The notes under the pieces were generated by a model, which had not been told where the DNA came from, ran no database searches, and saw only the letters and a list, made by a program, of their open reading frames with translations. Below, piece by piece: positions 4,360 to 47,696 of a stretch of 64,000 nt of DNA. The stretch lies in the NCBI GenBank assembly GCA_964421195.1, contig CAYQWL010000003.1, forward strand, positions 74 through 64,073, in the 5' to 3' direction. A program made the position numbers and the translations under genes. The stretch comes from an uncultured bacterium (GTDB taxonomy: Bacteria > Muiribacteriota > UBA9980). The number at the start of each line of letters is the position of its first letter. The stretch's first letter is position 1.

Positions 4360-4430
4360 TAAAATTTTAATTTATTACCGGGCTTTTTTTGAGCCTTTAT
4401 TAAAGATAAAGTGGAGCGAAATGTAATTAT

Positions 4431-6410: not shown

Positions 6411-6512
6411 GGATAAAAAGCGCAAAATGAACGTTAAACATGAAAACCTTATAACGGCTATTACATTCGCGTTTTTGCGCGCTCATATCCGATAACCCGG
6501 AGTAAAATTATC

Positions 6513-6542
6513 TTGACTAACAGGTCGTAACTGGATTATAAT
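6513..6542 (+). promoter_or_regulatory. candidate sigma70-type promoter upstream of wzm (TTGACT - 18 nt - TATAAT)
   Basis: TTGACT at 6513-6518 and TATAAT at 6537-6542, in the 167-nt AT-rich gap between asnB and wzm. Confidence 0.4.
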
Positions 6543-6577
6543 GGAATGTTATTATTAATTAACATTATACAATAAAC

Positions 6578-7459
6578 ATGTATGTGATATATGCGATGAA
6601 AGGCGATACGGAAGTGTCCGATGCGAGTGAAAGTAAATATAGTCTTCATATCAGTCCTGGCAAGGCCGGCATAAATTATTATAAAGATTTATGGCGCTAC
6701 AGAGAGCTTTTTTTATTTCTTGCCTGGCGCGACGTTCTGGTCCGATATAAACAGACCGTTATAGGCGTTTTATGGAGCGTACTGCGTCCGCTTATAACCA
6801 TGATTATTTTTACTATCGTATTCAGCCGGCTCGCTAATTTGCCTTCTAACGGCGCGCCTTATGGAGTCATGGTTTTCGCGGGGGTTTTACCCTGGCAGTT
6901 TTTTTCGAACTCGCTTGCCGATACCGGCAACAGTCTTGTGGCTAACGCGCACCTGGTATCTAAAGTTTATTTTCCGCGCATTATAATACCGGCTTCCTCG
7001 GTTATCGTGGGTTTTATCGATTTTTTAATCGCATTTATCATCATGCTGGTTTTAATGATATTCTGGTATTCGTTTATTCCGCCCGTATCTATTTTTTTTA
7101 TATTGCCGTTTCTCGTGCCGGCTTTTTTATCTTCTCTCGGACTCGGATTTCTTGTTTCGGCCCTTACCGTTAAATATCGTGATTTTCGTTATATAGTTCC
7201 TTTTATAGTTCAATTCGGCCTTTATATTTCGCCGGTCGGTTTTATGAGTTCGATAGTGCCTGAAAAGTGGCGTTTATTATATTCTTTAAATCCGATAGTC
7301 GGCGTTATAGACGGGTTTCGCTGGGCGATACTCGGCGGCGGTTCTCAACCTTTATGGTGGCCGGGCGTAGCGGTTTCAACCGCGGTCTCGATTATATTAT
7401 TCATGATAGGTTTCGGTTATTTTCGAAATACCGAAAAGGCTTTTGCTGATGTTATTTAA
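6578..7459 (+). CDS. wzm: ABC-2 type polysaccharide exporter permease (Wzm/TagG/KpsM-like)
   Basis: About 6 TM helices and the conserved N-terminal YKDLWRYRELFLFLAWRDVLVRYKQTVIGVLWSVLRPL motif of ABC-2 permeases. The true start may be the internal Met at 6596. Confidence 0.8.
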   Translation: MYVIYAMKGDTEVSDASESKYSLHISPGKAGINYYKDLWRYRELFLFLAWRDVLVRYKQTVIGVLWSVLRPLITMIIFTIVFSRLANLPSNGAPYGVMVFAGVLPWQFFSNSLADTGNSLVANAHLVSKVYFPRIIIPASSVIVGFIDFLIAFIIMLVLMIFWYSFIPPVSIFFILPFLVPAFLSSLGLGFLVSALTVKYRDFRYIVPFIVQFGLYISPVGFMSSIVPEKWRLLYSLNPIVGVIDGFRWAILGGGSQPLWWPGVAVSTAVSIILFMIGFGYFRNTEKAFADVI

Positions 7460-30491: not shown

Positions 30492-31496
30492 ATGAAAAAA
30501 ATATTTATTTTGTCAGTAGCTTTTGCGCTTTTATCATACGTTTCGATTTGTTTTGCGGGTGATGCGAATACCGCGGCGGCAAAATCAAGTGTTTCAACCA
30601 CTTATAATACCGATATAATGGGCAATCAGATAATCCACCACGATATTAATCATACCCCGGAAGAAAGTTATAAAGAAGGAATTTCCAGAGGCCGGTATAA
30701 ACAATACTGCAATTATTCAGAGCTTTTTTCAAATCTTACTATAAATGATGGACTTATTGATGAAATGATCGCTTATCCTGAAACTTCTATGGCAAAAAAA
30801 ATTAATGCTGCCGGTAATATACAAAACAAATCATCATCGAATAATAAAATGATTTTTGTTGAAAACGATCATCATTACGATGAAAAATCCTTGAATAAAG
30901 GAATTAAAGATGGCATGGCTGAATATGAACACGAACTTCTTCACGATACTGAAAATGGATCGCTTTTAACAATTGAACAGCATTTTAATATGGGGTTAAC
31001 TTATATTAATTCAAAAAATTTCGAAAACGCCCTGTTGCATTTTAATGTTATAGTAAAAAACGGCGGCGAATCCAATCCGTATTATTATAAAGCTATCTGG
31101 TATAACGCATATTCAAACATGAATATAAAATATAATGAACGTATTGCTCTTAAAGTATTAATAACATATTTTAATCATTTTGATAAAGAAATAAAAGCTG
31201 ATTCGATTTTTTATGCAGGTAAGCTTTTAGTAGATATTTCCTGGAATAATGAAAACATGTCGAAAAAATATTATGAAAAAGCTGTGTTATTGCTTTCCTC
31301 ATGGACAAATAAATATGAAAAAAATAAAAATTATCTTGAAGCGTTATTAAAATTAGCTACGGCGCAAGAAAAAATTAAAGAATACGGGGCGGCGTATAAT
31401 ACTTATAAAAAAATTGTACGTTTGTTCCCCAATTCTACGATTGCAAAAGAGGCTGAAAAAAGAATGGAATATCTTGCAGTTTACTTTCCATACTAA
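30492..31496 (+). CDS. secreted TPR-like repeat protein (signal peptide)
   Basis: N-terminal signal peptide (KKIFILSVAFALLSYVSICFAG). The C-terminal half has helical repeats with TPR-like spacing. No catalytic motif was recognised. Confidence 0.45.
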   Translation: MKKIFILSVAFALLSYVSICFAGDANTAAAKSSVSTTYNTDIMGNQIIHHDINHTPEESYKEGISRGRYKQYCNYSELFSNLTINDGLIDEMIAYPETSMAKKINAAGNIQNKSSSNNKMIFVENDHHYDEKSLNKGIKDGMAEYEHELLHDTENGSLLTIEQHFNMGLTYINSKNFENALLHFNVIVKNGGESNPYYYKAIWYNAYSNMNIKYNERIALKVLITYFNHFDKEIKADSIFYAGKLLVDISWNNENMSKKYYEKAVLLLSSWTNKYEKNKNYLEALLKLATAQEKIKEYGAAYNTYKKIVRLFPNSTIAKEAEKRMEYLAVYFPY

Positions 31497-31534
31497 ATAT
31501 AATGCCTCATGTATAAAACCCGAAAATTTACCTC

Positions 31535-31939
31535 TCAAACAGTCCGTTTTAAAAAAGGTATTTTTTTTAGTTCGTCAACGGCCGAATCAAAATCATTGTT
31601 AGCTTTAACGATTTTACGAAGCAGTTTAACAGCGGCCGGCGTTTTATTCATCCACCAGACGATGTCAGATACATCCATATCGTTTTTATCATCTTCTTTA
31701 ATTAATCGAGCATCAAGCCCGCCTTCAAGAAACCAATCGATATCAACGCCAAATTTTCTCTTAAGTGAAATCAAAAGATCGCAACCCGGAGCTTTTTTTC
31801 CCGCTTCAATTTCACAGATAAAACTAACCGAAGTTTCAAGTGCATCAGCAAAACGTTGCTGCGTTAATTTTCTCGTTAATCTGATTTCTTTTAACCGCTC
31901 CCCCAGCCCGATAAGTTCTTCTTTAGATAAACGGCTCAA
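31535..31939 (-). CDS. XRE-family helix-turn-helix transcriptional regulator
   Basis: LKEIRLTRKLTQQRFADALETSVSFICEIEAGKKAP is a canonical Cro/C1-type HTH. Confidence 0.7.
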   Translation of the reverse strand: MSRLSKEELIGLGERLKEIRLTRKLTQQRFADALETSVSFICEIEAGKKAPGCDLLISLKRKFGVDIDWFLEGGLDARLIKEDDKNDMDVSDIVWWMNKTPAAVKLLRKIVKANNDFDSAVDELKKIPFLKRTV

Positions 31940-31967
31940 ATTATTTCCTCATTTTTTAAAATTTTTC

Positions 31968-31996
31968 TTGACATTTTTCTCTTAAGCGAGTAGAAT
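31968..31996 (+). promoter_or_regulatory. candidate sigma70-type promoter (TTGACA - 17 nt - TAGAAT) reading toward the chemotaxis operon
   Basis: TTGACA at 31968-31973 and TAGAAT at 31991-31996, immediately beyond the start of the divergent XRE regulator gene. Confidence 0.35.
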
Positions 31997-32494
31997 AAAA
32001 AAGAAAAACGACAAATAAAAGAAATTAGAAAATATTTTTTTCGCTAAAACGAAAAAAATAAATTCACATCGGCGGCATAAAAACCCAAAAATAACTACCC
32101 GCTAAAAATTATTTTTCATGCGTCCGAATGGTTATTTTTTATTTTTGAAAAATACTATACCATAATTCATTCAATAAATAAAGTAAATTATTGTAAAAAT
32201 TGAAAAACGACGCGCTTTATGAAGAAATTTTCACTCTCTATATTATAAATTACAGCTACATTAAATAAACGAAAAAAAATTATTCCAGACCGTCTTTAAA
32301 AAGTATTAAAAATACGTTATTTTTTTACATAAATCAGCCTTTTTTTACTCTTTAAAAACAAATCGATTATATTTTTATTCCAGACGATTATAAATCATTT
32401 ATAAACCTACGGTAAAAGATTAAAATCAGAACGGCAAAACGGCATTTTTAACTTAATAAATAAGCGAATACAGACGAAAAGAGGCAGCTGCATA

Positions 32495-32941
32495 ATGAAT
32501 AATATTATAAATAACGAAAAAAGAAAATTAATATCTGAAAACATCAATACCGGCAATAAACTTTTAAATGATATAGAATCTTCGGAAATCGCCGGCGAAG
32601 AAAACTACATTTCATACAATAAAACAACCCCTGAAGTTTTAAATGCTATTTTTAGAATTTTTTATGCCGTCAAAGGTACGGCTTTTTTTATCGATTCACA
32701 AACGATTACCAATATAACCTATGAAACCAAAATTCTTCTCGCTATTTTTAAAAAAGAAAAAATCGTTCTTTGCTCCGAACATTTATCCCTTCTTTATCGA
32801 ACGAGCGATTTCATTAAAAACATTCTTAACATCATAGAAAAACAACTCATTAAAAAAACAACTCTTGTTTGTGATCACGCCGCTAAAATAAATAACGACA
32901 TACTTCATTTTTGTACTGAACCGTCCAAAAATGAACCATAA
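32495..32941 (+). CDS. stand-alone degenerate Hpt (CheA P1-like) domain protein; phospho-acceptor His replaced by Tyr
   Basis: 148 aa paralog of CheA residues 1-130 in this window. It has EVLNAIFRIFYAVKGTAFF where CheA has EILNTIFRLFHTLKGTASF, giving Tyr57 (codon 32663-32665, TAT) at the CheA His57 position. Confidence 0.6.
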   Translation: MNNIINNEKRKLISENINTGNKLLNDIESSEIAGEENYISYNKTTPEVLNAIFRIFYAVKGTAFFIDSQTITNITYETKILLAIFKKEKIVLCSEHLSLLYRTSDFIKNILNIIEKQLIKKTTLVCDHAAKINNDILHFCTEPSKNEP

Positions 32942-33069
32942 CATCCATTAAATGAACCGTTTGGTTCATATTTTTATTGACCGATGTACCATGAAATACA
33001 TAAACATTTCTAATTATTGCATTCCAGCCCGATGGCACATTAATTGCTTTTTAAAATAACGTTTTAATA

Positions 33070-33597
33070 ATGGCCATTGTTAAAAACAGGAGGCTGATTA
33101 AATTGAATATTTTGATAATCGATGATGATCCCGGCTGTCTCGACAGTTTGAGCAGTTCACTACAACTTTATTCACACAACTGCGAAGCGCATACCAACGC
33201 GCTAAACGCTCTTAAAATATACAAAGAAAATCATTCAAAGTACGATCTCGTTATTACCGACATGAAAATGCCTGCCATAAGCGGGATTGAAGTTTTAAAA
33301 AGGGCGCTTGAAATAAACCGCAACGCAAAAGTAATTATTATCACGGCTTACGGTGACGTAGAAACGGCTATTTCCGCCGTCAACAATCACGCTTATGCAT
33401 TTTTTGGAAAACCGATTAATTTTCAAGAATTACTCGAAACAATCGAAAAAATCGAAAATGAAAACTCGATCAAAAAATTACCGGAAGAAGAACTGAAAAA
33501 AATAATCGACGAATACGCTAAATTGAAAAAAGCCTATGAAGAACTTCGGTCGTTGTTAAGTAAAAAAAATAACGACGGGGAGGGCAATAAGAAATGA
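33070..33597 (+). CDS. single-domain response regulator (CheY-like receiver) with C-terminal coiled coil
   Basis: The REC residues are intact: IIDDDP, VITDMKMP (phospho-Asp), IITAYG (Thr) and FFGKP (Lys). A 45 aa charged C-terminal helix follows. The stop overlaps the cheA ATG (ATGA). Confidence 0.8.
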   Translation: MAIVKNRRLIKLNILIIDDDPGCLDSLSSSLQLYSHNCEAHTNALNALKIYKENHSKYDLVITDMKMPAISGIEVLKRALEINRNAKVIIITAYGDVETAISAVNNHAYAFFGKPINFQELLETIEKIENENSIKKLPEEELKKIIDEYAKLKKAYEELRSLLSKKNNDGEGNKK

Positions 33598-35891
33598 GTA
33601 GTATAATAAATGACGAAAAAATGGAATTCATTGCTGAATTTGTAAATTCAAGCCGTGAACTTCTCGACGATGTAGAACCGCAAATAATCGCTTTAGAAAA
33701 AAGTTCCAATGCATACGGCGAGGTAGATCCGGAAATTTTAAACACTATTTTCAGATTATTTCACACATTAAAAGGCACCGCTTCTTTCGTCGATTTACAA
33801 ACTATAACAAGCGTAACTCACGAAGCTGAAACACTTCTCGACATCTTCAGAAAAGAAAAAATCAGCCTTCGCACCGAGCATATCGATCTGCTCTGCCGCA
33901 CAAATGATTTCATCCGTAACATTCTCGATACGGTCGAGCGCCAGCTCGACGATAAAGGATTCGAAAGCATTGCCACGCAAATCGTAGGAGATTTAAAAAG
34001 CACCATAGCCGCAGTTTCTTCCGAAAACACGCCTCAAAATTTATCTCCAAATAATTTCAGCGGCGCATCTACATTAAAAGCTTCCAACGCGGACGGCGAA
34101 ACTTTTCAAAACGCGCCAGACGGCGATAAAACAGCCGAAGAATTCGAGGAAGAGCTTAAATTAATTATTTCACCAGAAATGAAAACGCGCTTTACTCAAG
34201 AAACCGGGGAATTATGTGAAGAAGCCGAAATGATGCTTCTTGCTTTTGAAAGAGTGCCCGACAATCTTGAACTTGCCGCCAACGCATTCAGAGCTCTTCA
34301 CAGTATTAAAGGAAACGCAGGATTTTTTGGCTTCGTAGAACTTGAAAAAATCAGTCATGCCACTGAAAATATACTTGACTCTCTCAGAAACGCATCACGC
34401 AAACCCGACAAAAACTTAATGTCCGTAATATTAACAGCCATAGATTATTTAAGAAATGGCGCAAAAAAAATCAACGAAGGGCTTCGTATAAATGAATCCG
34501 AAACTACCAATTTATTATCATCTCTTGAATCTCTTAACCCTTCAAATCCGGACAACGGCAAATCAAATACCGAAACTATCGCAACGCAGGACGGCATAAA
34601 TAATATCGGAAATACCGGAAACGATTTAAAAATCGAAAAAACGGAAACTGCGCCAAATGAAGAAACCGCGCGCGACGCTTCAAAAAATTCCGTCCCGGCT
34701 TCATCAGTACCACAAACATCGCAATATATTCGTATCGACACCGATAAACTCGATTCTCTTCTCGATCTCGTGGGCGAAATGGTAATCGCCGAATCGATGG
34801 TAGCTAACTGTCCGGAATTAAAAGGATTTCAGCTTGAAAAATTTGAAAAGGCAATACACCATTTAAATAAAATCACCCGTGATATTCAGGAAACCGCTCT
34901 TGCCATGAGAATGATACCATTATCATCTACTTTCCATAAAATGGAAAGGCTCGTACGCGACCTATCGAATAAATTCAATAAAAAAATTAAACTCGAAATC
35001 GCAGGTGAAGAAACCGAAGTAGATAAAACTATAATCGAACAAATATCCGATCCTCTTGTTCATATAATCCGCAATTCCATCGACCACGGACTCGAATCAA
35101 ACGAAGAACGCATAAAATCGGGCAAACCCGCCGCGGGAACCATAAAAATCGAAGCCCGCCACTCCGCCGGAGAAGTCTGGATTATTATCGAAGATGACGG
35201 ACGCGGACTCGACCGGGATAAAATAATTAAAAAAGCGATAGAAAATTCACTTATTAAAAGCGACGGTTCAGATCTTAAAGACGAAGAAATATGGAAACTA
35301 ATATTCGAACCGGGCTTTTCAACCGCCGAAAAAGTATCGAATATTTCGGGACGCGGCGTCGGAATGGACGTAGTAAAACGAAATATAGAAAAACTTCGCG
35401 GCAGAGTAGATATCAGAACTCAAAAAAACGCCGGAACCATTATAATTTTAAGAATACCGCTCACGCTGGCTATAATCGACGGAATGGAAATAGCCGTAGG
35501 CAAAGCGCGTTATATAATTCCCATAAATTCGATAAGACAATCATTTAAAACAGTCCAAAATAAAATATCGCATACACCCGATGGTAATGAAATAGTCAAT
35601 GTACGCGGCGAACTGCTTCCCGTAATCAGACTTCATAAAATGTATGATATAGTTCCGCTTTACACTAAACTCGAAGACGGACTTTTAATAATAGTCGAAA
35701 ACAACGAACAAAAATGCTGCCTTTTCGTCGATGAATTAATCGGACAACAGCAGATAGTAATTAAAGGGCTTTCTAACTATCTTGGAAGAGTGCGGGGCGT
35801 TTCCGGCTGCGCTATAATGGGCGACGGCGAAATAAGCCTGATCCTCGATATAGGCGATCTTATAAGCAGCATCGAAACGGCGGCAATATAA
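33594..35891 (+). CDS. cheA: chemotaxis histidine kinase CheA with two N-terminal Hpt domains
   Basis: Hpt-1 carries FRLFHTLKG. Hpt-2 carries FRALHSIKGNAGFFGF, close to the E. coli P1 motif. A Ser/Asn/Thr-rich linker follows, then P3 (IRIDTDKLDSLLDLVGEMVI), an HATPase_c domain (IRNSIDHGLE...GRGVGMDVV) and a CheW-like P5 domain. Confidence 0.9.
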   Translation: MSSIINDEKMEFIAEFVNSSRELLDDVEPQIIALEKSSNAYGEVDPEILNTIFRLFHTLKGTASFVDLQTITSVTHEAETLLDIFRKEKISLRTEHIDLLCRTNDFIRNILDTVERQLDDKGFESIATQIVGDLKSTIAAVSSENTPQNLSPNNFSGASTLKASNADGETFQNAPDGDKTAEEFEEELKLIISPEMKTRFTQETGELCEEAEMMLLAFERVPDNLELAANAFRALHSIKGNAGFFGFVELEKISHATENILDSLRNASRKPDKNLMSVILTAIDYLRNGAKKINEGLRINESETTNLLSSLESLNPSNPDNGKSNTETIATQDGINNIGNTGNDLKIEKTETAPNEETARDASKNSVPASSVPQTSQYIRIDTDKLDSLLDLVGEMVIAESMVANCPELKGFQLEKFEKAIHHLNKITRDIQETALAMRMIPLSSTFHKMERLVRDLSNKFNKKIKLEIAGEETEVDKTIIEQISDPLVHIIRNSIDHGLESNEERIKSGKPAAGTIKIEARHSAGEVWIIIEDDGRGLDRDKIIKKAIENSLIKSDGSDLKDEEIWKLIFEPGFSTAEKVSNISGRGVGMDVVKRNIEKLRGRVDIRTQKNAGTIIILRIPLTLAIIDGMEIAVGKARYIIPINSIRQSFKTVQNKISHTPDGNEIVNVRGELLPVIRLHKMYDIVPLYTKLEDGLLIIVENNEQKCCLFVDELIGQQQIVIKGLSNYLGRVRGVSGCAIMGDGEISLILDIGDLISSIETAAI

Positions 35892-36254: not shown

Positions 36255-38753
36255 ATGTTGAGTAATTTTACAATAGGAGCGAAGTTAAGACTCAGTTTTT
36301 TAGTGCTGACCTGCATGTGTATTTTCGTGGGTTATTCGGGTTATAAAGGATTAAGCTACACCACGGCGTCATTGAATAAGATGGCCAGCCAGAATGTACC
36401 TTCAATGGCCGCTATAGCCGATATGAAAGAAGGATTGATGGGCGTTATAGTCGGAGAGCGCGGCCTTATAAACCACAGAATGACGGGCGACGTCAGAACC
36501 GCCCAGTACGCATACATAGAAAAAAACACGGAATTGGTAACGAACGGATTTGAAAATTATAAAAAAATCCCCCGCTCGTCAAATGAAGAAGTTATATTTC
36601 AGGAACTCAGCGCGGGCTGGGAACCCTGGAAAACCGCGAGCAACAAAGTGGTAACGATGTCCCGTGAAAAAGACGCGACGCTCGCGCGCGGCGTAAGCAG
36701 CGAAGACGCCTCTATAAACGATTTCGATCAAAAAGTATTCGACGCATCTCTTGAATCAAAATCTAAATTTTTAGCTCTCGATAATACGCTTAACAAAATA
36801 AAAGCCGAAATAATCAACCGCACCAATAACGATTCTAAATCCGCATCGGAAAACGCGGCGAATAACATTTTAAAAATAATATATGTTATAATCGCGGCTG
36901 TAATTCTGGCGATAATAATCGGCGAAGTTCTTTCGCGCGGCGTAAAATCCATTTTAGACGCGCTTATGAGCGAGACGCGCGCCATAATATCGAGCGCGCT
37001 TAACGGCGATCTTTCAGCCAGAGCAAATGTTTCAAAAATCAACTTTGAATTCAGGCCCATAGCCGAAGGAATCAACAATCTTCTCGAAGCGCTTATAAAA
37101 CCTTTAAACATAGCCGCGGATTATGTCGATAAAATAGCGAAAGGCAACTTACCTGAAAAGATAACCGAAAATTACAACGGCGATTTCAATAAGCTCAAAA
37201 ATAACCTCAATCAGTGTATCGACGCCATAAACGCGCTTATAAAAGACGCCGGTATGCTTGCGTCCGCGGCGGTCAACGGCGATTTCAGCGTAAGGGCTGA
37301 TTCGTCGAAACATCAGGGAGATTACGCGAAAATCATCGACGGAATGAATGAAACCACCGGAGCTTTTGTAGGCGTACTCAACCGCACCATAGAACATCTC
37401 GAAAATATAAGCAAAGGCGCGATCGACGAAAATATTACACGCGAATATAAAGGCGAATTTAACCGCCTGAAAGTTAGTTTTAATAAATGCTTCGAAGCCG
37501 TAAGGCGCCTGACGGCGGATTCAAATATGCTTGTAGAAGCCGCGCTCGACGGTAAATTAGCGACTCGCGCGGACATAACGAAACACGAAGGCGATTTTCA
37601 AAAAATAGTTGACGGAGTAAATAAAACCCTCGACGCGGTAATTAAACCGGTAGAAGAAGCTTCCGGATGCCTGGAACAGATGGCGGCGGGCAACCTCGAC
37701 GTATCCATGAAAGGCGATTATAAAGGCGATCACGCGAAAATTAAAGACGCTTTAAATAAAACCATAGATTCAATGAATGAAATACTATCACAGGTGGCTA
37801 TCGCCGTCGATCAGGTCGATACCGGTTCACGCCAGGTATCCGACGCCAGCCAGTCGCTTTCGCAATCGGCCACCGAATCGGCCAGCTCTATCGAAGAAAT
37901 CAGCGCCACGATGCAGGAAATCAATTCGCAGACCAGACAGAATGCGGAAAACGCTACTCAGGCAAATAAACTTTCAGGCGATGCGCGCAATTCAGCCGAA
38001 GAAGGGAACGATAAAATGCGCGATATGAAAAAAGCCATGGCGGAAATAAACGAAGCGTCGGCGAACGTGGCAAAAATTATTAAAGCCATAGACGAAATAG
38101 CGTTTCAAACCAACCTGCTCGCGCTTAACGCCGCCGTAGAAGCGGCGCGCGCCGGAAAACACGGCAAAGGCTTTACGGTAGTAGCTGAAGAAGTCCGCAA
38201 CCTCGCCCAGCGCAGCGCGAAAGCCGCAAAGGAAACCGCTGAAATGATAGAAGGCTCGATCAAAAAAGCTGAAAATGGCGCTAAAATAGCCGAAGATACG
38301 GCGAAGTCACTCGAAATAATCGTCGCTGGCTCCGCGAAAGTAACCGATTTAATAGGTGAAATAGCCGCCGCGGCCCGCGAACAGGAAAAAGCCGTAACGC
38401 AGGTAAATCAGGGACTCACGCAAATCGATCAGGTAACCCAGCAAAATACCGCTACGGCGGAAGAAGCCGCTGCCGCTTCAGAAGAATTATCAAGCCAGGC
38501 AGCCGAGTTAAAAGGAATGCTCGCTAAATTCTCGCTCAAAAAATCCGCTTCGACGGTAAATGCGTACGTAGCCAAACAACCGGCAGCGGCTAATTCACAG
38601 CGCGCCATCATTAAACAGATAGCACATAAACCCGAAAAAAACAAACCGGCCGCAAAAATGCCCACGGCAGCCCCGGCCGATAACCGCAAAAAAGAAAAAA
38701 TAAACCCTGAAGATGTAATTTCATTAGACGATAACGAATTTGGAAAATTTTAA
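36255..38753 (+). CDS. methyl-accepting chemotaxis protein (4-helix-bundle-like periplasmic domain, poly-HAMP array)
   Basis: Two TM segments flank a ~170 aa periplasmic domain. Repeated HAMP-like units follow (NGDxSxRA motifs). The MA domain carries the highly conserved [41 protein letters not shown] core. Confidence 0.9.
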
Positions 38754-38770
38754 TGAACGGAGGTTAAATT

Positions 38771-39292
38771 ATGTCAATAAACGATAAAATCAAAAACAAT
38801 AATACGATGCTCGATGATGATATGGATGAAGAAATGGAAGACACTCAGGAAGACAAGTATTTAACTTTCGTTCTTAACCGCGAAGAATATGGCATTGAAA
38901 TCAAGCATGTAATCGAAATAATCGGAATTCAAAACATTACAAGTATTCCGGATATGCCTCACTATATAAAAGGCGTCATTAACCTTCGCGGAAAAGTAAT
39001 ACCGGTAATGGACGTGCGCATGCGTTTTAATATCAGCGAACAGGCCTATAACGAACGTACCTGCATAATAGTCATAACCGTCAGCGAACAGCTTGTCGGC
39101 CTTATAGTCGATGAAGTTTCCGAAGTGCTCGATATTCCCAAAACCAGCGTCGAACCCTCGCCAAAAGTTAATAAAGGCGAAGGAAGCAAATTCGTTCAGG
39201 GAATGGGAAAAATAGGCGACGCCGTTAAAATACTGCTCAACGTAGATAAACTTTTATTCGAAGAAGACCTCGAAAAAATAGCGGCGTTGTAA
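38771..39292 (+). CDS. cheW: chemotaxis coupling protein CheW
   Basis: 173 aa single CheW domain (YLTFVLNREEYGIEIKHVIEII...GVINLRGKVIPVMDVR). Confidence 0.85.
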   Translation: MSINDKIKNNNTMLDDDMDEEMEDTQEDKYLTFVLNREEYGIEIKHVIEIIGIQNITSIPDMPHYIKGVINLRGKVIPVMDVRMRFNISEQAYNERTCIIVITVSEQLVGLIVDEVSEVLDIPKTSVEPSPKVNKGEGSKFVQGMGKIGDAVKILLNVDKLLFEEDLEKIAAL

Positions 39293-39332
39293 ACCGGAAT
39301 CATTCATAATAAAAAATAGCGAGAGGTGAAAT

Positions 39333-42248
39333 ATGTTAAAAACGATAAAATCTAAAATAATTTTCGCGGGAATTTTAGCCGTCATAATACCCGTAGTTTT
39401 TATATTGACGCTCGTCAATAAAGAAAAAACGGAAATATCCACGACCGTAATAAACGAAGCGGCCAAACAGCTTAACGATCACATGCGAAGCGTAGCGCTG
39501 GACGCTTATTCATTATGTGAAAGTCAGCAGGAACTTCTTGAAAAAGTTATGCGCGCTAATATGAACGTACTTTTAGATAAAATCGAAACGCACGGCGGCC
39601 TCTCGCTCACGTCAAATACGGCGGAATGGCGTGCCGTAAATCAGGATAACCTTACGGAAACAATTACCGTCCTTCCCGAAATGAAATACGGAAAAACCGA
39701 AAACGGCTGGCTCGATCAAAGCGATCCGGCGAACGCCGGTTCGATAATTAAATCAAATTACGAACCCGGCGTTCCCACCGAAGTTATAGACGAAGTCGCG
39801 AACCTTGTCGGAGGCACCTGCACAATATTTCAGCGTATGAACGAAGCTGGCGACATGCTTCGAATAGCGACGAACGTTTTAACTAAAGACGGCAAACGCG
39901 CCATAGGCACATATATACCGGCCGTTAACGCATCCGGCGTCAAAAACATTATAATACAAAACATTCTCGCGTCAAAACCATATTCAGGAAGAGCGTTCGT
40001 CGTAAATGCCTGGTATGCGGCAAATTATACGCCCATCAAAGATCATACCGGTAAAATTATCGGCATGGCCTATGTGGGAGTAAAGCAGGAATCGGTCGAA
40101 AGCCTTAGAAAAGCCGTAATGGACATAAAAATAGGCGAAAGCGGATACGTATTCGTTCTGGGCGGCAGCGGCTCGCACATGGGAAACTACATAATATCAT
40201 ATAAAGGCGCGGCGGACGGGAAAAATATTTACGATACGAAAGATCCGTCCGGCCGCCAGGTCATCAAAGAAATGATAGAACTTTCTAAAAACGCGAACGG
40301 CAAGCCTGTATTTTATCAATACCAATGGCAAAACAAAGGCGAAGCCGCGCCGCGCCTTAAAATGGCTTCGGTCGTCTATTTTGAAAAATGGGACTGGGTA
40401 ATCGGCGCAAGCGCATATCTCGACGAATTCACCCGAACTACGGACATAATTAACGGCAATATAGATAAACTATTCGTTCATTCGATTTACGCGGCTTTAT
40501 TCTCGTTAATCCTCGCGCTTATACTGACCGTCACAATCGGCAACGGCGTCGGAAAAAATATCGCCGCGATATTATCTACCATAAAAAATCTTACCGACAA
40601 TATAGCCGCCGGAAAACTCGCCATACGCGGCGACAAAAATTCAGTCACCGATGAATTCGCGCCCGTCGTCGAAGGAGTAAACCGCGTTATGGACGCGTAT
40701 AAAAAACCCGTAGAACTCGCCGTAAGCTATATAAGCAGCGTATCTCAGGGTGTTTTACCCGAAAAAATATCCGAAACATATCACGGCGATTTTAATAAAA
40801 TTAAAGACAGCCTTAACAATTTAATCGATACTCTCGGCGATTTCTCGTCTCAGATGAAAAACATATTTAAAGACCATAGCGCGGGCGAAATCGACGTTAA
40901 ATTAAACCTTGATAAGTTTAAAGGCATTTATCTCGATATCGGCGAAAGCGTTTCTAAAACGATTAACTATCATATAAGCGCAATGCTGAAAGTGCTTTCT
41001 ATAATCGAAGAATACGGCGTAAAAGGCGATTTTGCCAGAAACCTCGAAAAATTTCCGGGTAAACAGATCATCGCCAATCAAATGGTTGACGCGCTTAAAG
41101 ACAATTTGAAAAACGTTATCGCCGAAACAAAAATGCTCGCCGCGGCCGGCATCGAAGGAAGGCTTAAAATCAGAGGCGACGCTTCCAGATTCGTGGGCGA
41201 TTACAGCGAAATAATAAAAGGCATTAACCACACGCTCGATTCGGTTATTAAACCCGTAGAAGAAGCCACAAAAACTCTCGAAGCTATGGCGCGCGGAGAT
41301 TTAAGCGTCGAAATGAAAGGTAATTACGCCGGAGACCACGCTATATTGAAAAATTCACTTAACGCGACCCTCGATTCAATGAATGATATAATCGCGCAGG
41401 TTCTTATAGCCGCCGATCAGGTCGAATCAGGATCTACACAGGTAGCCGATGCAAGCCAATCGCTCTCGCAGGCCGCCACGGAACAGGCAAGCTCGCTCGA
41501 AGAAATAAGCGCCACCATGCAGCAAATCAATTCTCAGGCCGGACGTAATGAACAAAGCGCGGGACAGGCTTCCTCGCTCGCCGTCGAAACAAGAAAATCA
41601 GCCGAGGAAGGCAATATGAAAATGGCGAATATGCAAAAAGCCATGGCCGAAATCAACGAAGCTTCGGCAAGCGTCGCTAAAATAATAAAAGCTATCGACG
41701 AAATAGCTTTTCAAACCAACCTTCTCGCCCTCAACGCCGCGGTAGAAGCCGCCCGCGCCGGCAAGCACGGAAAAGGCTTTACCGTCGTGGCCGAAGAAGT
41801 GCGTAATCTCGCGCAGCGCAGCGCAAAAGCGGCTAAAGAAACCGCTGAAATGATAGAAGGCTCCATCACGAAAGCCGAAGCGGGCTCTAAAATCGCCGAA
41901 GACACATCGAAATCGCTCGCCGAAATAAATAACAGCGTAACTAAAGTAACCGATTTAATAGGCGAAATAGCCGCGGCCTCAAAAGAACAAACTACAGGCA
42001 CTGTGCAGGTAAATCAGGGGCTTACTCAAATTGATCAGGTAACTCAGCAAAACACCGCGACAGCGGAAGAAGCGGCTGCCGCTTCGGAAGAGCTTTCAAG
42101 CCAGGCGCGCGAACTTAAAGGCATGCTTACTAAATTCAAATTAAAAAACAAAACTGACGGCGGAAAGACTTATAACGCCTATTTAAAAACCGACACTATA
42201 AACCATAAAAATAATAAAAATAAAAATAAACCTGAAATGTTAAAATAA
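39333..42248 (+). CDS. methyl-accepting chemotaxis protein with Cache-type periplasmic sensor and poly-HAMP array
   Basis: N-terminal TM, then a ~350 aa periplasmic region with a Cache-like fold (GTYIPAV...[28 protein letters not shown]). A TM segment, HAMP repeats and an MA domain follow. The MA core is identical to that of the first MCP. Confidence 0.9.
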
Positions 42249-42283
42249 AAACTTGACTATTATAGTAACGATGGTGGTATAAT

Positions 42284-43120
42284 ATGAGTATGGTCGGAAT
42301 AACGGAAGAAGAATTTAAAACTATAAGCGGATTTGTCTATGATAAATTCGGAATAAAGCTCGGCGATCAAAAGAAGACTTTGATCATCGAACGGCTTCAA
42401 AAAATATTACGCACCGGCGGGTTCGATAGCTTCAAACAATATTTTGAACACATCATCAGCGAACCCACCGGAGAAGCCATTCTCACTTTCATAGATAAAG
42501 TATCCACACATCATACATTTTTTTTCAGAGAAAACGACCATTTCGAGTTTTTAAGTAACCACGCGCTTCCTTATTTACTCGATAAATGCACACGCTCCGG
42601 AGAAAGCCCCGACATTAGAATCTGGTGCGCCGGCTGCTCTTCGGGCGAAGAGCCTTACACCGTCGCTATATGCGCAAACGAATTCATCCAGAATAATAAA
42701 TTAAAAATTTCAGATATATCCATCCTCGCCACCGATATTTCAGTCACATCCATATCCAGAGCGTCAAACGGCATATATCCGGCCGCATCGCTCGCCCATG
42801 TTCCGCCGCTGTACAGGCAAAAATATTTCACGCCGGGTCAGGAAGGCGAATTTATAATAAAACCTTTTTTAAAAGACATTATCTTATTCAGACGCCTTAA
42901 TTTAATGCGCGAAAATTATCCATTTAAAGGGCGCTTCGATATAATTTTCTGCCGCAACGTAATGATCTATTTCGATTCGCCCACGCGCGCGGCGCTCATA
43001 AATCGATTCCACCATTATACTAAAGATGGAGGTTATTTATTTATAGGCCATTCAGAATCCATAAACAGAACGACTTCCATTTATAAATATATTAAACCGG
43101 CGGTTTATCAAAAATTATAG
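42284..43120 (+). CDS. cheR: chemotaxis protein methyltransferase CheR
   Basis: An N-terminal helical domain is followed by a SAM-MT fold with IRIWCAGCSSGEEPYTVAI and FCRNVMIYFD motifs. Confidence 0.85.
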   Translation: MSMVGITEEEFKTISGFVYDKFGIKLGDQKKTLIIERLQKILRTGGFDSFKQYFEHIISEPTGEAILTFIDKVSTHHTFFFRENDHFEFLSNHALPYLLDKCTRSGESPDIRIWCAGCSSGEEPYTVAICANEFIQNNKLKISDISILATDISVTSISRASNGIYPAASLAHVPPLYRQKYFTPGQEGEFIIKPFLKDIILFRRLNLMRENYPFKGRFDIIFCRNVMIYFDSPTRAALINRFHHYTKDGGYLFIGHSESINRTTSIYKYIKPAVYQKL

Positions 43121-43252
43121 CAAAATAATATATTAATGCAATGGTTGTAATGTAGTGCATTATGGTGTAAATACAGATATTATATTATGTAGCATAATAA
43201 CCGCACCGCATTATTGTGATGAATACAACATAATTAGTAATAAAAAATAAAA

Positions 43253-44317
43253 ATGCTTATGAATGAAAAACGAATAAAAGTCTTAATAATAGATGATTCA
43301 GCGTTGGTCCGCGAAATCCTTTCAAAAGGGCTCGCGCTCGACAAAGAGCTCGAAATAGTCGGAACGGCTTCCGACCCTTTTATCGCTCGCGATAAAATCA
43401 TTGAATTAAAACCCGATGTTTTAACGCTCGATGTTGAAATGCCGCGTATGGACGGGGTCGAATTTTTAAAAAAACTAATGCCGCAATACCCGCTTCCGGT
43501 AGTAATCGTAAGCGCATTAACTAAAAAAGGCGCCCGGATAACTTTAGAAGCTTTTGAAGCCGGCGCCGTCGAAGTCGTTACCAAACCTTCAAGCGATGTC
43601 GCCCGCGGCCTTACCGCCATGCTCAACGATCTTCGGGCCAAAATAAAAATAGCCGCCGGCACTAACGTATCGGCATGGAAAATAAATAAAAAACCCTCCG
43701 CCGTTATTAAAGCCGACAGTAAAGCGCTTGCCGAATCAACCGATAAAGTAATAGCGATAGGCGCTTCTACAGGCGGCACGGAAGCTATCCGTAAAATTTT
43801 AAAAACTTTTCCAGCCTCGATGCCGGGCGTAATTATCGTTCAGCACATGCCGGCTGGTTTTACGGCGCATTTCGCCGAAAGTCTCAACGCGAACTGCGCT
43901 ATGGAAGTTAAAGAGGCCGTCCATGGCGACCGCATTATGCCCGGCAGAGTGCTCGTAGCGCCAGGCGGCGAAAAACAATGCAGAGTTTTACGTTCCGGCG
44001 GTATTTATATAGCCGATTTAAAACAGGGCGAAAAAGTATGCGGCCATTGTCCGTCGGTAGAAGTAATGTTCGAATCCGTCGCTAAATACGCAGGAGCTAA
44101 CGCTATAGGAATCATTCTCACGGGTATGGGAAGCGACGGCGCCGGCGGAATGCTTATGATGCGTCAGGCGGGTGCGCGAACCATAGCGCAGGACGAACAG
44201 AGCTCGGTGGTTTTCGGCATGCCGAAAGTAGCTTATGAACGCGGCGGCGCCGAAAAATTAGTTCCGCTTTCAGATATAACGCAACGGGTTATATCTATTT
44301 TAGAAGGCCGCGAATAA
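43253..44317 (+). CDS. cheB: chemotaxis response regulator protein-glutamate methylesterase CheB
   Basis: REC domain (VLIIDDSALVRE...VLTLDVEMPRMDG) plus a methylesterase domain with IAIGASTGGTEA and HMPAGFT motifs. Confidence 0.9.
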   Translation: MLMNEKRIKVLIIDDSALVREILSKGLALDKELEIVGTASDPFIARDKIIELKPDVLTLDVEMPRMDGVEFLKKLMPQYPLPVVIVSALTKKGARITLEAFEAGAVEVVTKPSSDVARGLTAMLNDLRAKIKIAAGTNVSAWKINKKPSAVIKADSKALAESTDKVIAIGASTGGTEAIRKILKTFPASMPGVIIVQHMPAGFTAHFAESLNANCAMEVKEAVHGDRIMPGRVLVAPGGEKQCRVLRSGGIYIADLKQGEKVCGHCPSVEVMFESVAKYAGANAIGIILTGMGSDGAGGMLMMRQAGARTIAQDEQSSVVFGMPKVAYERGGAEKLVPLSDITQRVISILEGRE

Positions 44318-44361
44318 GGCTGTGAATAAAGTTTCCATTTATTAAATATAAGGAACAAATT

Positions 44362-44847
44362 ATGAATAATATAATCGTAGGCATAGGCGGAATAGGAATT
44401 TCAAATAAACCGGGCGATATAATAAAAACACTGGCGCTCGGTTCATGCGTGGGCGTTATGGTTTATTCGCCCAAACTATCGCTTGCCGGCCTGATTCACG
44501 TAGCACTGCCCGATTCAAAAATAAACGCCAGCCTCGCTCATGAAAAGCCATGTTATTTCGCGGATACCGGTATTCCTTTTTTACTGGCGGCGCTCGCTAA
44601 ATTCGGATGCCTGCTTTACAGCGATTTAATTATTAAATTAGCGGGAGGCGCTAATATAATGGATCCAGAACAGCGTTTTGATATAGGAACGCGCAATATT
44701 CTCGCCGTCAAAAAAAATCTGTGGCGTTATAAACTCGGACCGCTCGCAGAAGACACCGCCGATACGATCAGCCGTACGGTAAAACTCGAAGTCGCTACGG
44801 GACGGGTTATTTTATCTTCGCCTTCAATTGGGGAGTGGGAAATATGA
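44362..44847 (+). CDS. cheD: chemoreceptor glutamine deamidase CheD
   Basis: 161 aa. LGSCVGVMVYSP matches the CheD catalytic Cys region. The 3' end overlaps cheY. Confidence 0.8.
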   Translation: MNNIIVGIGGIGISNKPGDIIKTLALGSCVGVMVYSPKLSLAGLIHVALPDSKINASLAHEKPCYFADTGIPFLLAALAKFGCLLYSDLIIKLAGGANIMDPEQRFDIGTRNILAVKKNLWRYKLGPLAEDTADTISRTVKLEVATGRVILSSPSIGEWEI

Positions 44848-45215
44848 GCATAGAAACCATAATGATAGTAGATGATTCAGCTATGGCAAGGCTTATCATG
44901 AAACAATGCCTTGAAATAGCCGGATACCGCGGCAAACAATTTATCGAAGCGATCAACGGAAAAGACGCGCTCGAAAAATTAATTAAACAAAAAGCGGACC
45001 TCGTCGTTACTGACCTTAATATGCCGGTAATGGAAGGAAACGCTTTATTAGACAATATAAAAAATACGCCGGAGCTCAAAGAAACACCGGTGATAATAAT
45101 TACAAGCAACAGCAATTCCGCGCGTGAAACGGAATTAAAAAATAAAGGGGCCTTCGCGGTTATCAACAAACCGATTTCACCGGCCGTAATCCATAAAATA
45201 TGTTCTCAATTATAA
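44835..45215 (+). CDS. cheY: chemotaxis response regulator CheY
   Basis: 126 aa REC domain with IMIVDDSAMAR, VVTDLNMPVMEG, IIITSNS and VINKP. Confidence 0.85.
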   Translation: MGNMSIETIMIVDDSAMARLIMKQCLEIAGYRGKQFIEAINGKDALEKLIKQKADLVVTDLNMPVMEGNALLDNIKNTPELKETPVIIITSNSNSARETELKNKGAFAVINKPISPAVIHKICSQL

Positions 45216-45227
45216 AGGAGGAAAACC

Positions 45228-45701
45228 GTGAATCAGTCCTGCGATTATAAAAAAATACTGACGGATTCAATAATGCGCACTCTCGAAGAAATCGCCTTCA
45301 TCCAGCTTATCGAAATTCAGACGGAAACGCTCGATACGACGAGCCCCGATTACATGCAGGACATGCTTTCCGTATATATGCCGGTTAAAGCCAAATATGG
45401 CATTTTAATAATGAGCGCTTCAAGTGAAATATTAGAAGAAACGGCGTGCAACATATTTGCATTAGAACCCGGAACACGGCCTGGACCCGAAATGATCAAC
45501 GACACTCTTTCAGAATTATTAAATACGATTTCCGGACAATTCATGAGGGCCATAACTCCCGTAAACGAATTTTACGAACTCGGACTTCCGGTAACTGGAA
45601 ATTTTGATCTAAAAACGATCGAAGGCGAAGCCGTCAACTGCGCTTTTGAAAACGAAAACGGCGCGAAACTTTTAATTTCTTATATAAAAATATCGAAATA
45701 A
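45228..45701 (+). CDS. cheX: CheX/CheC-family CheY-P phosphatase (single-motif, CheX-like)
   Basis: 157 aa. LSELLNTISGQF fits the CheC/CheX-family E-x2-N active motif. Size and single motif favour CheX, and the gene lies directly after cheY. Confidence 0.55.
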   Translation: MNQSCDYKKILTDSIMRTLEEIAFIQLIEIQTETLDTTSPDYMQDMLSVYMPVKAKYGILIMSASSEILEETACNIFALEPGTRPGPEMINDTLSELLNTISGQFMRAITPVNEFYELGLPVTGNFDLKTIEGEAVNCAFENENGAKLLISYIKISK

Positions 45702-45803: not shown

Positions 45804-47696
45804 TTAAAAATTAGCGGCCGATGAAGTTCCGAGCGCCGCCGCTCCTATAGCGCCCATAAACTGCGCGTCGGGCGGAACTATTATTTTTTTAAAACCTGAG
45901 TTAGATTTTAGTATTTCTAAAAAAGCTTTATTATGGCTTATACCCGATGTTACTACGAGAATTCCCGACTGCGAACGATGCGCTTCAAGAAGAGGAGCGA
46001 TACGGGCATAAACGGTATAATTAACGCCCGCCATTATTTTTTTAATATCCACTCCGGCTATTAATTTAGCGATCAGTTCAGTCTCTCCAAATGTCGCACA
46101 GGTTATAGAAAGCGGTTCAGGATCAAGATAATGTTTTGATATTTCACCAAGATCCGCCTTTAAAATTCGAGCCATATTTTCTATATACCTTCCTGAACCG
46201 GCGGCGCACTTATCGTTCATTGAAAAACCTTCAACGGCGCCTCCGCTCACTTCCATTACCTTAATATCCTGTCCGCCGACGTCAAGAAGCGTAAAGTTTT
46301 TAAGGCCTGATGCGTAAACCGCGCCAGCCGCATGACATTCTATTTCGGAAAAAGGCATTGCATCGAAAATTGAAGCCCTATAACGGCCGTATCCGGTAGA
46401 AAAATATTCCATTTTATTAATATTTTCAATATTTTTTTCACCCGATGTCTCAAAAAGATTCAAAATATCCGAATTAAATCTTTCGAAAGCGTTATGTTTA
46501 TTTTCTACGCTTAAATATTTAATTATAAAATCCATAGTTTCATAAATTTCTAAAAATTTGCGGCCGTTTACGAAACAGGCTATTTTAACCGAACGAGATC
46601 CAAGATCTATTCCGGCGGCGCAACGAATACGATTCATTAAATCGATCTTTTTCGATTTCCGTCTATATTTTTTCTTTTCAACGTTTAAAATAAAGCTTTC
46701 AATTTTAAGCCGGTCATTTTCATTAAGCGGCGCCGGACGATCACCTTCGATCGTAAGCACGGGAAAATCGCCAAGCTCGTTTTTTAAAATTCCATCTTCT
46801 ATTTGATGAAAACAAAAACTTTGAACATAATGTATCAAACAATCGAGCCGTCTTTCGTCAACGGCTTTTTTTATATCTTTCAGACGGTTGCTAAAAGAAT
46901 AAGGATATGTATAATTACGGTACGTTTCGCAAAGATCGAGTCCTATACAGTCTATCAACGAAAACTGCTTTTGAGTTTCGTTATAAATAATTTCTGAACC
47001 GAACGAAGAAATATAATCATAATAATCGCTGAAAACCGGAGGTATTCCGACATGGCCGATGCGCAGTGAAACGCTTTTAGACGGCCGCGCTTCGACTTGT
47101 TTTAAAAACGATTTCATGTCTTCATAAAATACAGCCGGATTACGATTAAAATCAGAAGCCGAAATTAAATTGAGATGGTTTTCAAATCCGCTCACCTTAA
47201 GTTCTTTATAAGTAAGTTCATCCATACGCTTTAATATTAAGCGGCAGCGATCAAATTCCGATTTGATTTTTTCGCATGAATCAATATCGGCGCCATAATA
47301 ATTTATAAACCGCATAATTTCATTTTCAAGCCTTTTACGGTCGCCGTTCAAAGGATACTCGAACGAAAATATTTTAATATTATGATAAGCTAATATATCT
47401 GAAATTGGAATGGTGTGAGCGCAATCGCCTTCGGTAACGATTACCGCGTTTTTTAATTTTAAAAACACGGCCGCCGCCATTACGCCGCGCGTCCAGCAGC
47501 ATACCGCGCGAGGCGCAAGCCCCGAAGAAAGTTTTAACAGCTCATCCGGCGAGCGGGACGCTATAAAAATATTATTTAAATCGACCGGGATCAGGCCGGC
47601 CGAATAAATAACTTCGATTGGTACAGTAGAACTTATACCTACAAGCTTTTCAATATCGTTTTTTAATTCGGAATAATTCGAAAGGATATCTATCAT
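45804..47696 (-). CDS. fusion protein: 2-hydroxyacyl-CoA dehydratase D/beta-component-like domain + BadF/BadG/BcrA/BcrD (HgdC-like) ATPase activator
   Basis: The N-terminal ~360 aa has Cys motifs (CCWTRG, GDCAH) as in HgdB-like dehydratase components. The C-terminal ~270 aa has the actin-fold start AAGIDLGSRSVKIA and the cluster-bridging NDKCAAGSGRY motif of dehydratase activators. Confidence 0.65.
   Translation of the reverse strand: MIDILSNYSELKNDIEKLVGISSTVPIEVIYSAGLIPVDLNNIFIASRSPDELLKLSSGLAPRAVCCWTRGVMAAAVFLKLKNAVIVTEGDCAHTIPISDILAYHNIKIFSFEYPLNGDRKRLENEIMRFINYYGADIDSCEKIKSEFDRCRLILKRMDELTYKELKVSGFENHLNLISASDFNRNPAVFYEDMKSFLKQVEARPSKSVSLRIGHVGIPPVFSDYYDYISSFGSEIIYNETQKQFSLIDCIGLDLCETYRNYTYPYSFSNRLKDIKKAVDERRLDCLIHYVQSFCFHQIEDGILKNELGDFPVLTIEGDRPAPLNENDRLKIESFILNVEKKKYRRKSKKIDLMNRIRCAAGIDLGSRSVKIACFVNGRKFLEIYETMDFIIKYLSVENKHNAFERFNSDILNLFETSGEKNIENINKMEYFSTGYGRYRASIFDAMPFSEIECHAAGAVYASGLKNFTLLDVGGQDIKVMEVSGGAVEGFSMNDKCAAGSGRYIENMARILKADLGEISKHYLDPEPLSITCATFGETELIAKLIAGVDIKKIMAGVNYTVYARIAPLLEAHRSQSGILVVTSGISHNKAFLEILKSNSGFKKIIVPPDAQFMGAIGAAALGTSSAANF

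Follow-up and report, generated by a model that had tools for sequence, protein, structure and literature searches.

Introduction

In the P1 (Hpt) domain of the chemotaxis kinase CheA, the phospho-accepting histidine is activated by a network formed by H67 and E70 (E. coli numbering). This domain can work from a polypeptide other than that of the kinase core, as in Rhodobacter sphaeroides, where CheA3 (P1-P5) is phosphorylated in trans by CheA4. In this P2-less CheA3, P1 alone docks CheY6, via helices A and B and the B-C loop (PMC2817712). Phosphotransfer between HPt proteins and receivers requires a glycine at position H+4, G52 of CheA included (PMC6341664). Homologs having lost the acceptor His are also on record. 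In plants, duplication of true HPts gave rise on two occasions to pseudo-HPts, which act as inhibitors of the phosphorelay (PMC11497342). In Pseudomonas aeruginosa, the Ser/Thr Xpt domains of ChpA were not observed phosphorylated and their role is unknown (PMC12632253). Here, we describe psi-P1, a predicted gene for a stand-alone, His-less P1 paralog, located next to a chemotaxis (che) operon in a 64,000-nucleotide stretch of DNA (the window) from an uncultured bacterium of the Muiribacteriota. Plant pseudo-phosphotransfer proteins, the His-less Xpt domains of ChpA and the trans-phosphorylated P1 of CheA3 are thus already known. In the literature searched, no free-standing His-less P1 paralog acting on a bacterial chemotaxis kinase, or encoded beside a che operon, turned up.

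A partial copy of cheA

The gene and its surroundings comprise the following features.

32478-32484, + strand: Shine-Dalgarno-like AAAGAGG, 10 nt 5' of the psi-P1 ATG, read from the sequence
32495-32941, + strand: psi-P1, stand-alone His-less P1 paralog, 148 aa, ATG start, called as an open reading frame (ORF)
33103-33597, + strand: receiver of the CheY type, extended at its C-terminus by a helical segment of about 50 aa; opens the ancestral operon (Pfam Response_reg, E 2e-23)
33594-35891, + strand: CheA, 765 aa, Hpt-Hpt-dimerisation-HATPase-CheW-like, no P2 match (Pfam, BLASTP, orthologs 75-78% identical)

Residues 1-121 of psi-P1 align without a gap with residues 1-121 of the CheA encoded downstream (BLASTP, 51% identity, 77% positives, E 2e-39), and the starts of the two proteins coincide in the alignment (MNNIIN in psi-P1, MSSIIN in CheA). 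The parent of psi-P1 is therefore the first Hpt domain of CheA (about 33594-34028), to which its homology had been recognized in an earlier reading of this DNA made from its letters alone (the sequence-only reading). That reading was also correct in describing this CheA as devoid of P2, since Pfam detects two Hpt domains in it but no P2. Both Hpt domains contain the His, and the double-Hpt, P2-less architecture is common to the sister genomes. The stop codon of psi-P1 is 653 nt from the cheA start, with the receiver gene in between. On either strand, the longest ORF in the 555-nt AT-rich spacer located 5' of psi-P1 has only 49 aa, so that the psi-P1 reading frame is far beyond chance.

Outside the aligned region, no trace of the parental DNA was detected. 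Homology of the upstream spacer to cheY, and of the psi-P1 tail to the rest of cheA, was not significant as compared to shuffled sequences. The same was true of the similarity between the 40-100 nt preceding the psi-P1 ATG and those preceding the cheA ATG, and no claim is therefore made that the ribosome-binding site was co-duplicated. Rfam and repeat scans of the 31.4-34.2 kb region returned nothing meaningful. Taken together, the alignments show psi-P1 to be a partial duplicate of cheA, lineage-specific and confined to the part encoding the first P1/Hpt domain, about codons 1-140 of cheA.

The closest genomes are metagenome-assembled genomes of uncultured candidate phyla (UBP16_UBA6123, ADurb.Bin243 and two others). 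The CheA proteins of these closest relatives are 75-78% identical overall to that of the window, and their P1 domains 89-93%. psi-P1 is 51% identical to the P1 of its own clade and only 32.5% identical to that of the next relatives (loci L005 and L006), which argues that the copy derives from this clade's own cheA. For comparison, the P1 of the window CheA is 53-56% identical to the L005/L006 domains. At the nucleotide level, identity between psi-P1 and its parent is 0.64, 0.77, and 0.51 at the first, second, and third codon positions, respectively. Synonymous sites are saturated, the third-position value being the same as between orthologous cheA genes; thus, the duplication is not recent. 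Attempts to date it from the positions that separate the window CheA from its orthologs yielded no consistent signal, and these positions did not place the copy on the window branch.

The possibility that psi-P1 is an assembly or sequencing artefact, for instance a chimeric contig or a miscalled base, has to be considered because its sequence is known from a single metagenome-assembled contig. However, psi-P1 and cheA differ at 36% of their nucleotides and not at one base, the 3' flank of psi-P1 is colinear with the sister genomes, and the ORF is intact and provided with a ribosome-binding site. An artefact is thus extremely improbable. As for the one-base sequencing variant named as a check in the sequence-only reading, it is dismissed by the 49% of residues that distinguish psi-P1 from its parent.

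Loss of the phosphotransfer site

Three groups of codons define the state of the active site.

32663-32665, + strand: codon 57, TAT (Tyr), replacing the phospho-accepting His (H48 of E. coli CheA); CAC in the window CheA and in four orthologs
32672-32677, + strand: codons 60-61, Lys-Gly (H+3 and H+4; E. coli K51 and G52), kept in the alignment
32720-32731, + strand: codons 76-79, TAT GAA ACC AAA (Tyr-Glu-Thr-Lys) for His-Glu-Ala-Glu, by codon comparison

With numbering set against the E. coli and Salmonella CheA chains (H57=H48, K60=K51, H76=H67, E79=E70), psi-P1 carries Y57, K60, Y76, and K79. Hence, the acceptor His, the second His and the Glu are all replaced, through identical CAC to TAT changes at His57 and His76 and a GAA to AAA change at Glu79. 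In 93 N-terminal P1 homologs, H57 is conserved at 98%, H76 and E79 at 100%. When all Hpt domains of the 150 best HMMER matches are considered, the acceptor column contains His in 226 cases out of 229, the exceptions being the query itself and two short proteins described below. The sequence-only reading had correctly seen the Tyr that takes the place of the phospho-His. It had also stated that the flanking Lys and Glu are conserved. This holds for Lys60 only: the conserved, catalytic Glu (E. coli E70) has become Lys79, and what had been noticed is another Glu, E77. These replacements support the view that psi-P1 would be unable to serve as a His phosphotransfer site. It should be noted that His-to-Tyr replacement is mutationally expected under strong GC-to-AT drift, so that the Tyr itself needs no functional explanation.

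It could be imagined that Tyr57 is itself a phospho-acceptor, psi-P1 being then a "Ypt" domain by analogy with the Ser/Thr Xpt domains of ChpA. The existence of His-less Xpt domains in ChpA (PMC12632253) and the occurrence, in a second lineage, of another acceptor-site Tyr (see below) would go in this direction. However, the non-His domains of ChpA were not seen phosphorylated (PMC12632253), the acceptor-activating H67 and E70 are also lost in psi-P1, and the CAC to TAT change, found identically at His76, is the expected product of drift. We consider phosphorylation of Tyr57 very improbable.

How psi-P1 compares with the described systems can now be specified. With CheA P1 domains (E. coli/Salmonella 1I5N, 2LP4, 8C5V; T. 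maritima 1TQG, 2LD6), it shares ancestry, five helices and the helix B motif FR.F.x.KG.A. It differs from them in being a separate 148-aa protein and not the N-terminus of a kinase, in having Y, Y, and K for H48, H67, and E70, and in being neutral to basic, not strongly acidic, and not recognized by PF01627. Like AHP6 from Arabidopsis (His to Asn) and PHP1-3 from rice (His to Gln), psi-P1 is a stand-alone HPt homolog lacking the acceptor His. Unlike them, it derives from a bacterial CheA P1, carries Tyr as the replacement and has also lost the Glu/His network. Because its nearest relative is the neighboring cheA, its origin is independent of that of the plant proteins. Moreover, these are clade-conserved and genetically validated, whereas psi-P1 is a singleton known from sequence alone. 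The Xpt domains of ChpA are also P1-type domains of the chemosensory kinase family with a replaced His, but they carry Ser/Thr and are embedded in the kinase beside working Hpt domains, whereas psi-P1 is a separate ORF with Tyr. Finally, CheA3 from R. sphaeroides (CheA3P1-CheY6 complex, PDB 3KYJ) resembles the present case in that its P1 is not confined to the polypeptide of the kinase core. However, it keeps the His and is a true phosphotransfer domain, whereas psi-P1 is devoid of the His network and has a diverged helix A.

Position with respect to the che operon

The region separating psi-P1 from the receiver gene contains regulatory elements, and the chemosensory genes continue downstream of cheA.

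32932-32947, + strand: degenerate first copy of a palindrome, TGAACCATAACATCCA, aligned with the cheY-upstream regions of loci L001, L002, and L004
32953-32968, + strand: intact palindrome, TGAACCGTTTGGTTCA, followed by a T-run; putative enhancer-binding-protein site, sole window match to TGAAC-N6-GTTCA
33033-33048, + strand: sigma-54-type promoter TGGCAC-N5-TTGCT, TGGCACATTAATTGCT, exact consensus, 55 nt before the receiver start
36255-45701, + strand: remaining chemosensory cluster, MCP, CheW, MCP, CheR, CheB, CheD, CheY, CheX (Pfam)

psi-P1 lies on the same strand as the che operon, its stop codon being 161 nt upstream of the TTG start of the receiver gene at 33103. This start was set by homology (Shine-Dalgarno GGAGG at 33089-33093), the mechanical ORF beginning at 33070. 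The receiver stop codon overlaps the cheA start (ATGA), and in L001 and L002 the receiver orthologs directly precede cheA. The 161 nt align with the regions upstream of the receiver in relatives that have no psi-P1. Within them, the sigma-54 consensus is the only match in the 64 kb when up to one mismatch is allowed, and its GGCAY-N5-TTGC core is conserved in L001, L002, L004, and L012. In addition, the intact palindrome has a counterpart at an equivalent place in L001-L004 and L012, each of which contains two exact TGAAC-N6-GTTCA copies, 23 nt apart. The coordinates of the upstream sites in relatives are as follows.

L001: 5332-5370
L002: 5336-5374
L003: 68-106
L004: 2637-2674
L012: 2074-2112
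L005: 4961-4976

Only one intact palindrome is found in the present genome because the 3' end of psi-P1 overlaps the other copy, which is degenerate; the overlap involves the last codons of psi-P1 and its stop codon (32939-32941). A DNA pattern scan built on the che promoter retrieved nothing but a contig from the L002 species, and this contig lacks psi-P1. These comparisons suggest sigma-54 dependence of the che operon, and the tandem palindromes look like sites for an enhancer-binding protein. A simple scan had also pointed to a weak terminator-like hairpin at 32952-32969. This hairpin is no argument for an intrinsic terminator after psi-P1, since the same palindrome is conserved in genomes lacking psi-P1.

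The sequence-only reading regarded psi-P1 as the first gene of the che operon. This cannot be retained, because the conserved sigma-54 promoter and palindromes separate psi-P1 from the receiver gene and because the operon of the relatives begins with the receiver. The arrangement shows psi-P1 to lie outside, and beside, the predicted ancestral che transcription unit.

Selection acting on psi-P1

Comparison of psi-P1 with its parent (Nei-Gojobori) gave a dN of 0.335 and a dS of at least 2.29 (saturated), hence a dN/dS of at most about 0.15. For orthologous P1 pairs, dN is about 0.06 and dN/dS 0.03-0.05. Neutral evolution was simulated by letting the parental P1 DNA diverge to the observed 64% nucleotide identity, under three base compositions and with 5000 replicates each. 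The 121 codons remained free of stops in only 0.16-1.3% of the replicates, as they are in psi-P1. Simulated amino-acid identity was 0.36 +/- 0.03 (maximum 0.48) vs. 0.51 for psi-P1, and BLOSUM positives reached 0.52 +/- 0.035 (maximum 0.645) vs. 0.77. In a second simulation, run until H57, H76, and E79 had all been replaced, only 1-3% of the sequences were still stop-free. With an open frame, no insertion or deletion in 121 codons and a rejected neutral pattern, psi-P1 does not match a decaying pseudogene. Thus, the estimates show that, as judged from its substitution pattern, psi-P1 was subject to purifying selection during most of its history, this selection being about 5-10 times weaker than that acting on the parental P1. 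To this extent, the low dN/dS and the open, indel-free frame bear out the idea of a gene that was maintained and not left to decay.

A candidate pseudo-phosphotransfer protein

The AlphaFold2 model of psi-P1, obtained from a 17-sequence alignment with a moderate mean pLDDT of 67, shows five helices (7-38, 46-66, 69-88, 94-119, 126-141). When this model was compared to the PDB using Foldseek, the six best matches were all CheA P1 structures, with TM scores of 0.6-0.7 and 3KYJ in second position. A direct sequence search of the PDB gave a single marginal match, to a designed P1-derived protein, so that the fold search was needed to show the relationship. The matches of an exhaustive HMMER search are CheA N-termini. 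Helices B, C, and D are 58-62% identical to those of the parent, and helix B keeps 8 out of 10 family-conserved residues (N50, F53, R54, F56, K60, G61, A63, F65).

By analogy with plant AHP6/PHP proteins, the following mechanism can be proposed. psi-P1 would be a small, soluble, non-phosphorylatable protein expressed from a promoter of its own, located upstream. The surface kept on helix B (N50, F53, R54, F56, K60, G61) would then contact a natural partner of P1 non-productively. This partner could be the P4 domain of CheA or else one of the receivers, namely the leading regulator of the CheY type, CheB or CheY. As a consequence, phosphate flow might be damped or re-routed in this P2-less CheA, where receivers must dock on P1 itself. 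Such a pseudo-phosphotransfer protein acting on the adjacent pathway is suggested by the retention of K60, G61 and most conserved helix B residues, by the Shine-Dalgarno motif and aligned start, and by the che-adjacent location. Its P1 ancestry and fold, the loss of its phosphotransfer residues and the selection on the protein also speak for it, as do the docking of CheY6 by P1 alone in CheA3 (PMC2817712), the requirement for the H+4 Gly (PMC6341664) and the plant precedents (PMC11497342). We hold this proposal tentatively, and would place it somewhat short of an even chance. In broader terms, psi-P1 is probably a species-specific modulator of the chemotaxis pathway. The decoy mechanism put forward in the sequence-only reading, competition for P4 or for CheY/CheB, is pure conjecture and is weakened by several of the observations below.

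A first set of observations that weigh against a non-productive partner of the chemotaxis proteins concerns the protein itself. No match to Pfam PF01627 (Hpt) is obtained with psi-P1 even at E 0.1, the neighboring CheA scoring 89 bits. From parent to copy, the net charge over the aligned 121 residues goes from -11 to +2 and the pI from 4.5 to 6.8. Helix A, which makes up half of the receiver-docking face, has diverged most (38% identity to the parent), with E11 and F16 lost, and the helix C motif by the active site has changed from THEAETLLD to TYETKILLA. A faithful mimic of P1 would be expected to keep its charge as well as these features of helices A and C. Moreover, 17 of the 31 family-conserved positions are kept, which is no better than overall identity. 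Free P1 binds P4 and CheY weakly, with affinities in the hundreds of micromolar; a free decoy would therefore compete poorly with tethered P1, unless it were abundant or had gained affinity.

Base composition and distribution also count against it. With a GC content of 0.29, psi-P1 is the lowest of the 52 window ORFs (mean 0.40, standard deviation 0.043). At sites that are invariant in five cheA genes, it shows 47 GC-to-AT, 13 AT-to-GC and 8 AT-to-AT changes. The low GC and the 47:13 bias point to a strongly relaxed constraint. The selection estimate is an average over the whole history of a single sequence pair with saturated dS, and it would therefore accommodate a recent loss of function. 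psi-P1 is absent from four sister species in which the region upstream of cheA was readable. No second P1 copy is found 5' of the receiver-cheA pair in L001, L002/L012 or L004; L003 extends just about 240 nt past the receiver gene. A word-indexed search of 5.8 billion clusters retrieved only psi-P1 itself, an exhaustive HMMER search over 1.84 billion representatives gave a next-best match with 37% identity, and no relative was found in JGI metagenomes. A contig look-up by exact sequence likewise gave nothing. The protein cluster of psi-P1 has one member, and psi-P1 is a singleton among about 15 billion proteins. The search for orthologs suggested in the sequence-only reading, aimed at a clade-wide Tyr, thus came back empty, and with no ortholog neither conservation of the Tyr nor that of the gene across a clade can be shown.

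These observations raise the possibility that psi-P1 is a relic: a duplicated P1, once functional or tolerated, would have lost its function and would now be a still-open ORF drifting to A+T. Its singleton status and its absence from sister genomes, its GC content and mutational bias, and the fact that Pfam no longer detects it are in line with this view. So are the loss of every catalytic residue and of many family-conserved ones, with no preferential keeping of conserved sites, and the existence elsewhere of a parallel His-to-Tyr P1 remnant in what is apparently a collapsed CheA-receiver gene (see below). On the other hand, neutral simulations seldom keep the frame open and never reach the observed identity or positives, and neutral loss of the three catalytic residues leaves only 1-3% of the ORFs open. 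In addition, the 121 codons are free of indels, second codon positions have diverged far less than third ones, and the hydrophobic-core pattern is preserved, together with helix B. On balance, a relic appears unlikely, but it deserves serious consideration.

The proposal of a pseudo-phosphotransfer protein can be formulated in a stronger way, in which psi-P1 would be the bacterial counterpart of AHP6, i.e., a phosphorylation-dead free P1 that binds a receiver or the catalytic domain of CheA and thereby sets the gain or the routing of a P2-less, double-Hpt CheA. This more specific version is doubtful.

His-less P1 proteins in a second lineage

P0152 and P0149 are stand-alone P1-like proteins of 144 aa that, like psi-P1, have Tyr in place of the acceptor His. 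They are 85% identical to each other, with a dN/dS of about 0.25, and their hosts are two roughly 3.8 Mb genomes encoding proteins with sorting-tail domains of the type IX secretion system (T9SS; Por). Their loci are the following.

L011, 5932-9695: P0152/P0149 locus
L009, 4076-7735: P0152/P0149 locus
L010: independent short contig, in which the 144-aa Tyr-Hpt of L009 is found identical

The gene order is NtrC-type regulator, receiver, Tyr-Hpt, truncated receiver fragment, CheY, CheX, and there is no cheA nearby. These proteins resemble psi-P1 in being short and P1-only, in having Tyr at the acceptor position and in having chemotaxis-type neighbors (CheY-like receivers, CheX). They are 27-31% identical to psi-P1, belong to another CheA lineage and keep the THEAET motif (H67, E70). 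Because psi-P1 and P0152/P0149 come from different CheA lineages, stand-alone P1 proteins with a His-to-Tyr replacement arose at least twice. The tail of P0152/P0149 results from a frame shift common to both genomes. The locus itself has the appearance of a collapsed CheA-receiver gene. As for a wider Tyr-Hpt family, P0152 and P0149 were the only two members found.

In L009, whose contig is labelled 13x, several genes that are intact in L011, including those for the NtrC-type regulator and CheY, are split over 4035-7300. These splits are most likely due to assembly indel errors. Another candidate, P0047 (142 aa, P1-only, with Arg at the acceptor position; L008, 27-455 of a 691-nt contig), was rejected as the representative of a His-less family, since its relatives P0153 (91%) and P0151 (71%) carry the His. 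P0047 is probably a single variant or an error and not a family.

The left flank of the che cluster

Two genes precede psi-P1.

30492-31496: TPR protein
31535-31939, - strand: XRE-type HTH regulator, divergently transcribed

Among the coding blocks of the window, the one made up of these two genes and the adjacent psi-P1 is the richest in A+T (30492-32941, GC 0.29-0.36). A near-consensus sigma-70-like promoter, TTGACA-17-TAGAAT (11/12 positions; 31968-31996, + strand), is located by the start of the divergent HTH gene and faces psi-P1 at a distance of about 500 nt. On the + strand, the interval between this promoter and psi-P1 has no ORF of more than 22 aa. In the scan for sigma-70-like promoters, the count was not above that in shuffled sequences.

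This context leads to consider that psi-P1 became a neofunctionalised helical bundle that no longer works with CheA, its partner being for instance another receiver or two-component system, or the XRE-type regulator. The reversed charge and the remodelled helices A and C would be explained in this manner. The separation of psi-P1 from the che genes by the operon's own sigma-54 promoter and upstream sites, its inclusion in an AT-rich, non-syntenic block with the TPR protein and the HTH regulator, and the promoter-like sequence by the regulator gene that faces it also fit. However, nothing positive points to another partner. The simplest account of its location beside the parent operon, in the same orientation, is a local duplication, the copy having a related role, and the kept K60, G61, R54, and F53 are residues of the P1 active face. 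Recruitment to another system seems to us fairly improbable, somewhat more so than decay into a relic.

The genes located upstream of the che operon differ in each sister genome. Such a left flank, different every time, suggests a rearrangement-prone or accessory region. In both L002 (3422-5281) and L012 (160-2019), the che operon is immediately preceded by a gene assigned by eye to the 2-hydroxyglutaryl-CoA dehydratase D-component family (HGD-D and BcrAD/BadFG ATPase domains). In the window, a gene of similar length with the same two Pfam domains is located just downstream of the che cluster (45804-47696, - strand). If these HGD-D-type genes correspond to each other, their positions would suggest that the surroundings of the che cluster were locally inverted or rearranged.

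Implications for chemosensory signaling

In eukaryotic signaling, regulation by pseudo-enzymes and by pseudo-phosphotransfer proteins is established. The weight of the present case is limited, psi-P1 being a single gene from one uncultured genome and under strongly relaxed constraint. If psi-P1 does bind CheA or receivers, it would constitute a natural probe, encoded by a separate gene, of the weak contacts (P1-P4 and P1-CheY) by which kinase output is controlled. It would then also show how phosphate is routed in a CheA that lacks P2 and has two Hpt domains, and would provide an example of a new pathway regulator born from a partial gene duplication. Finally, if psi-P1 is a bacterial counterpart of AHP6, pseudo-phosphotransfer regulators would evolve repeatedly from CheA via P1-only duplication, P0152/P0149 being another instance.

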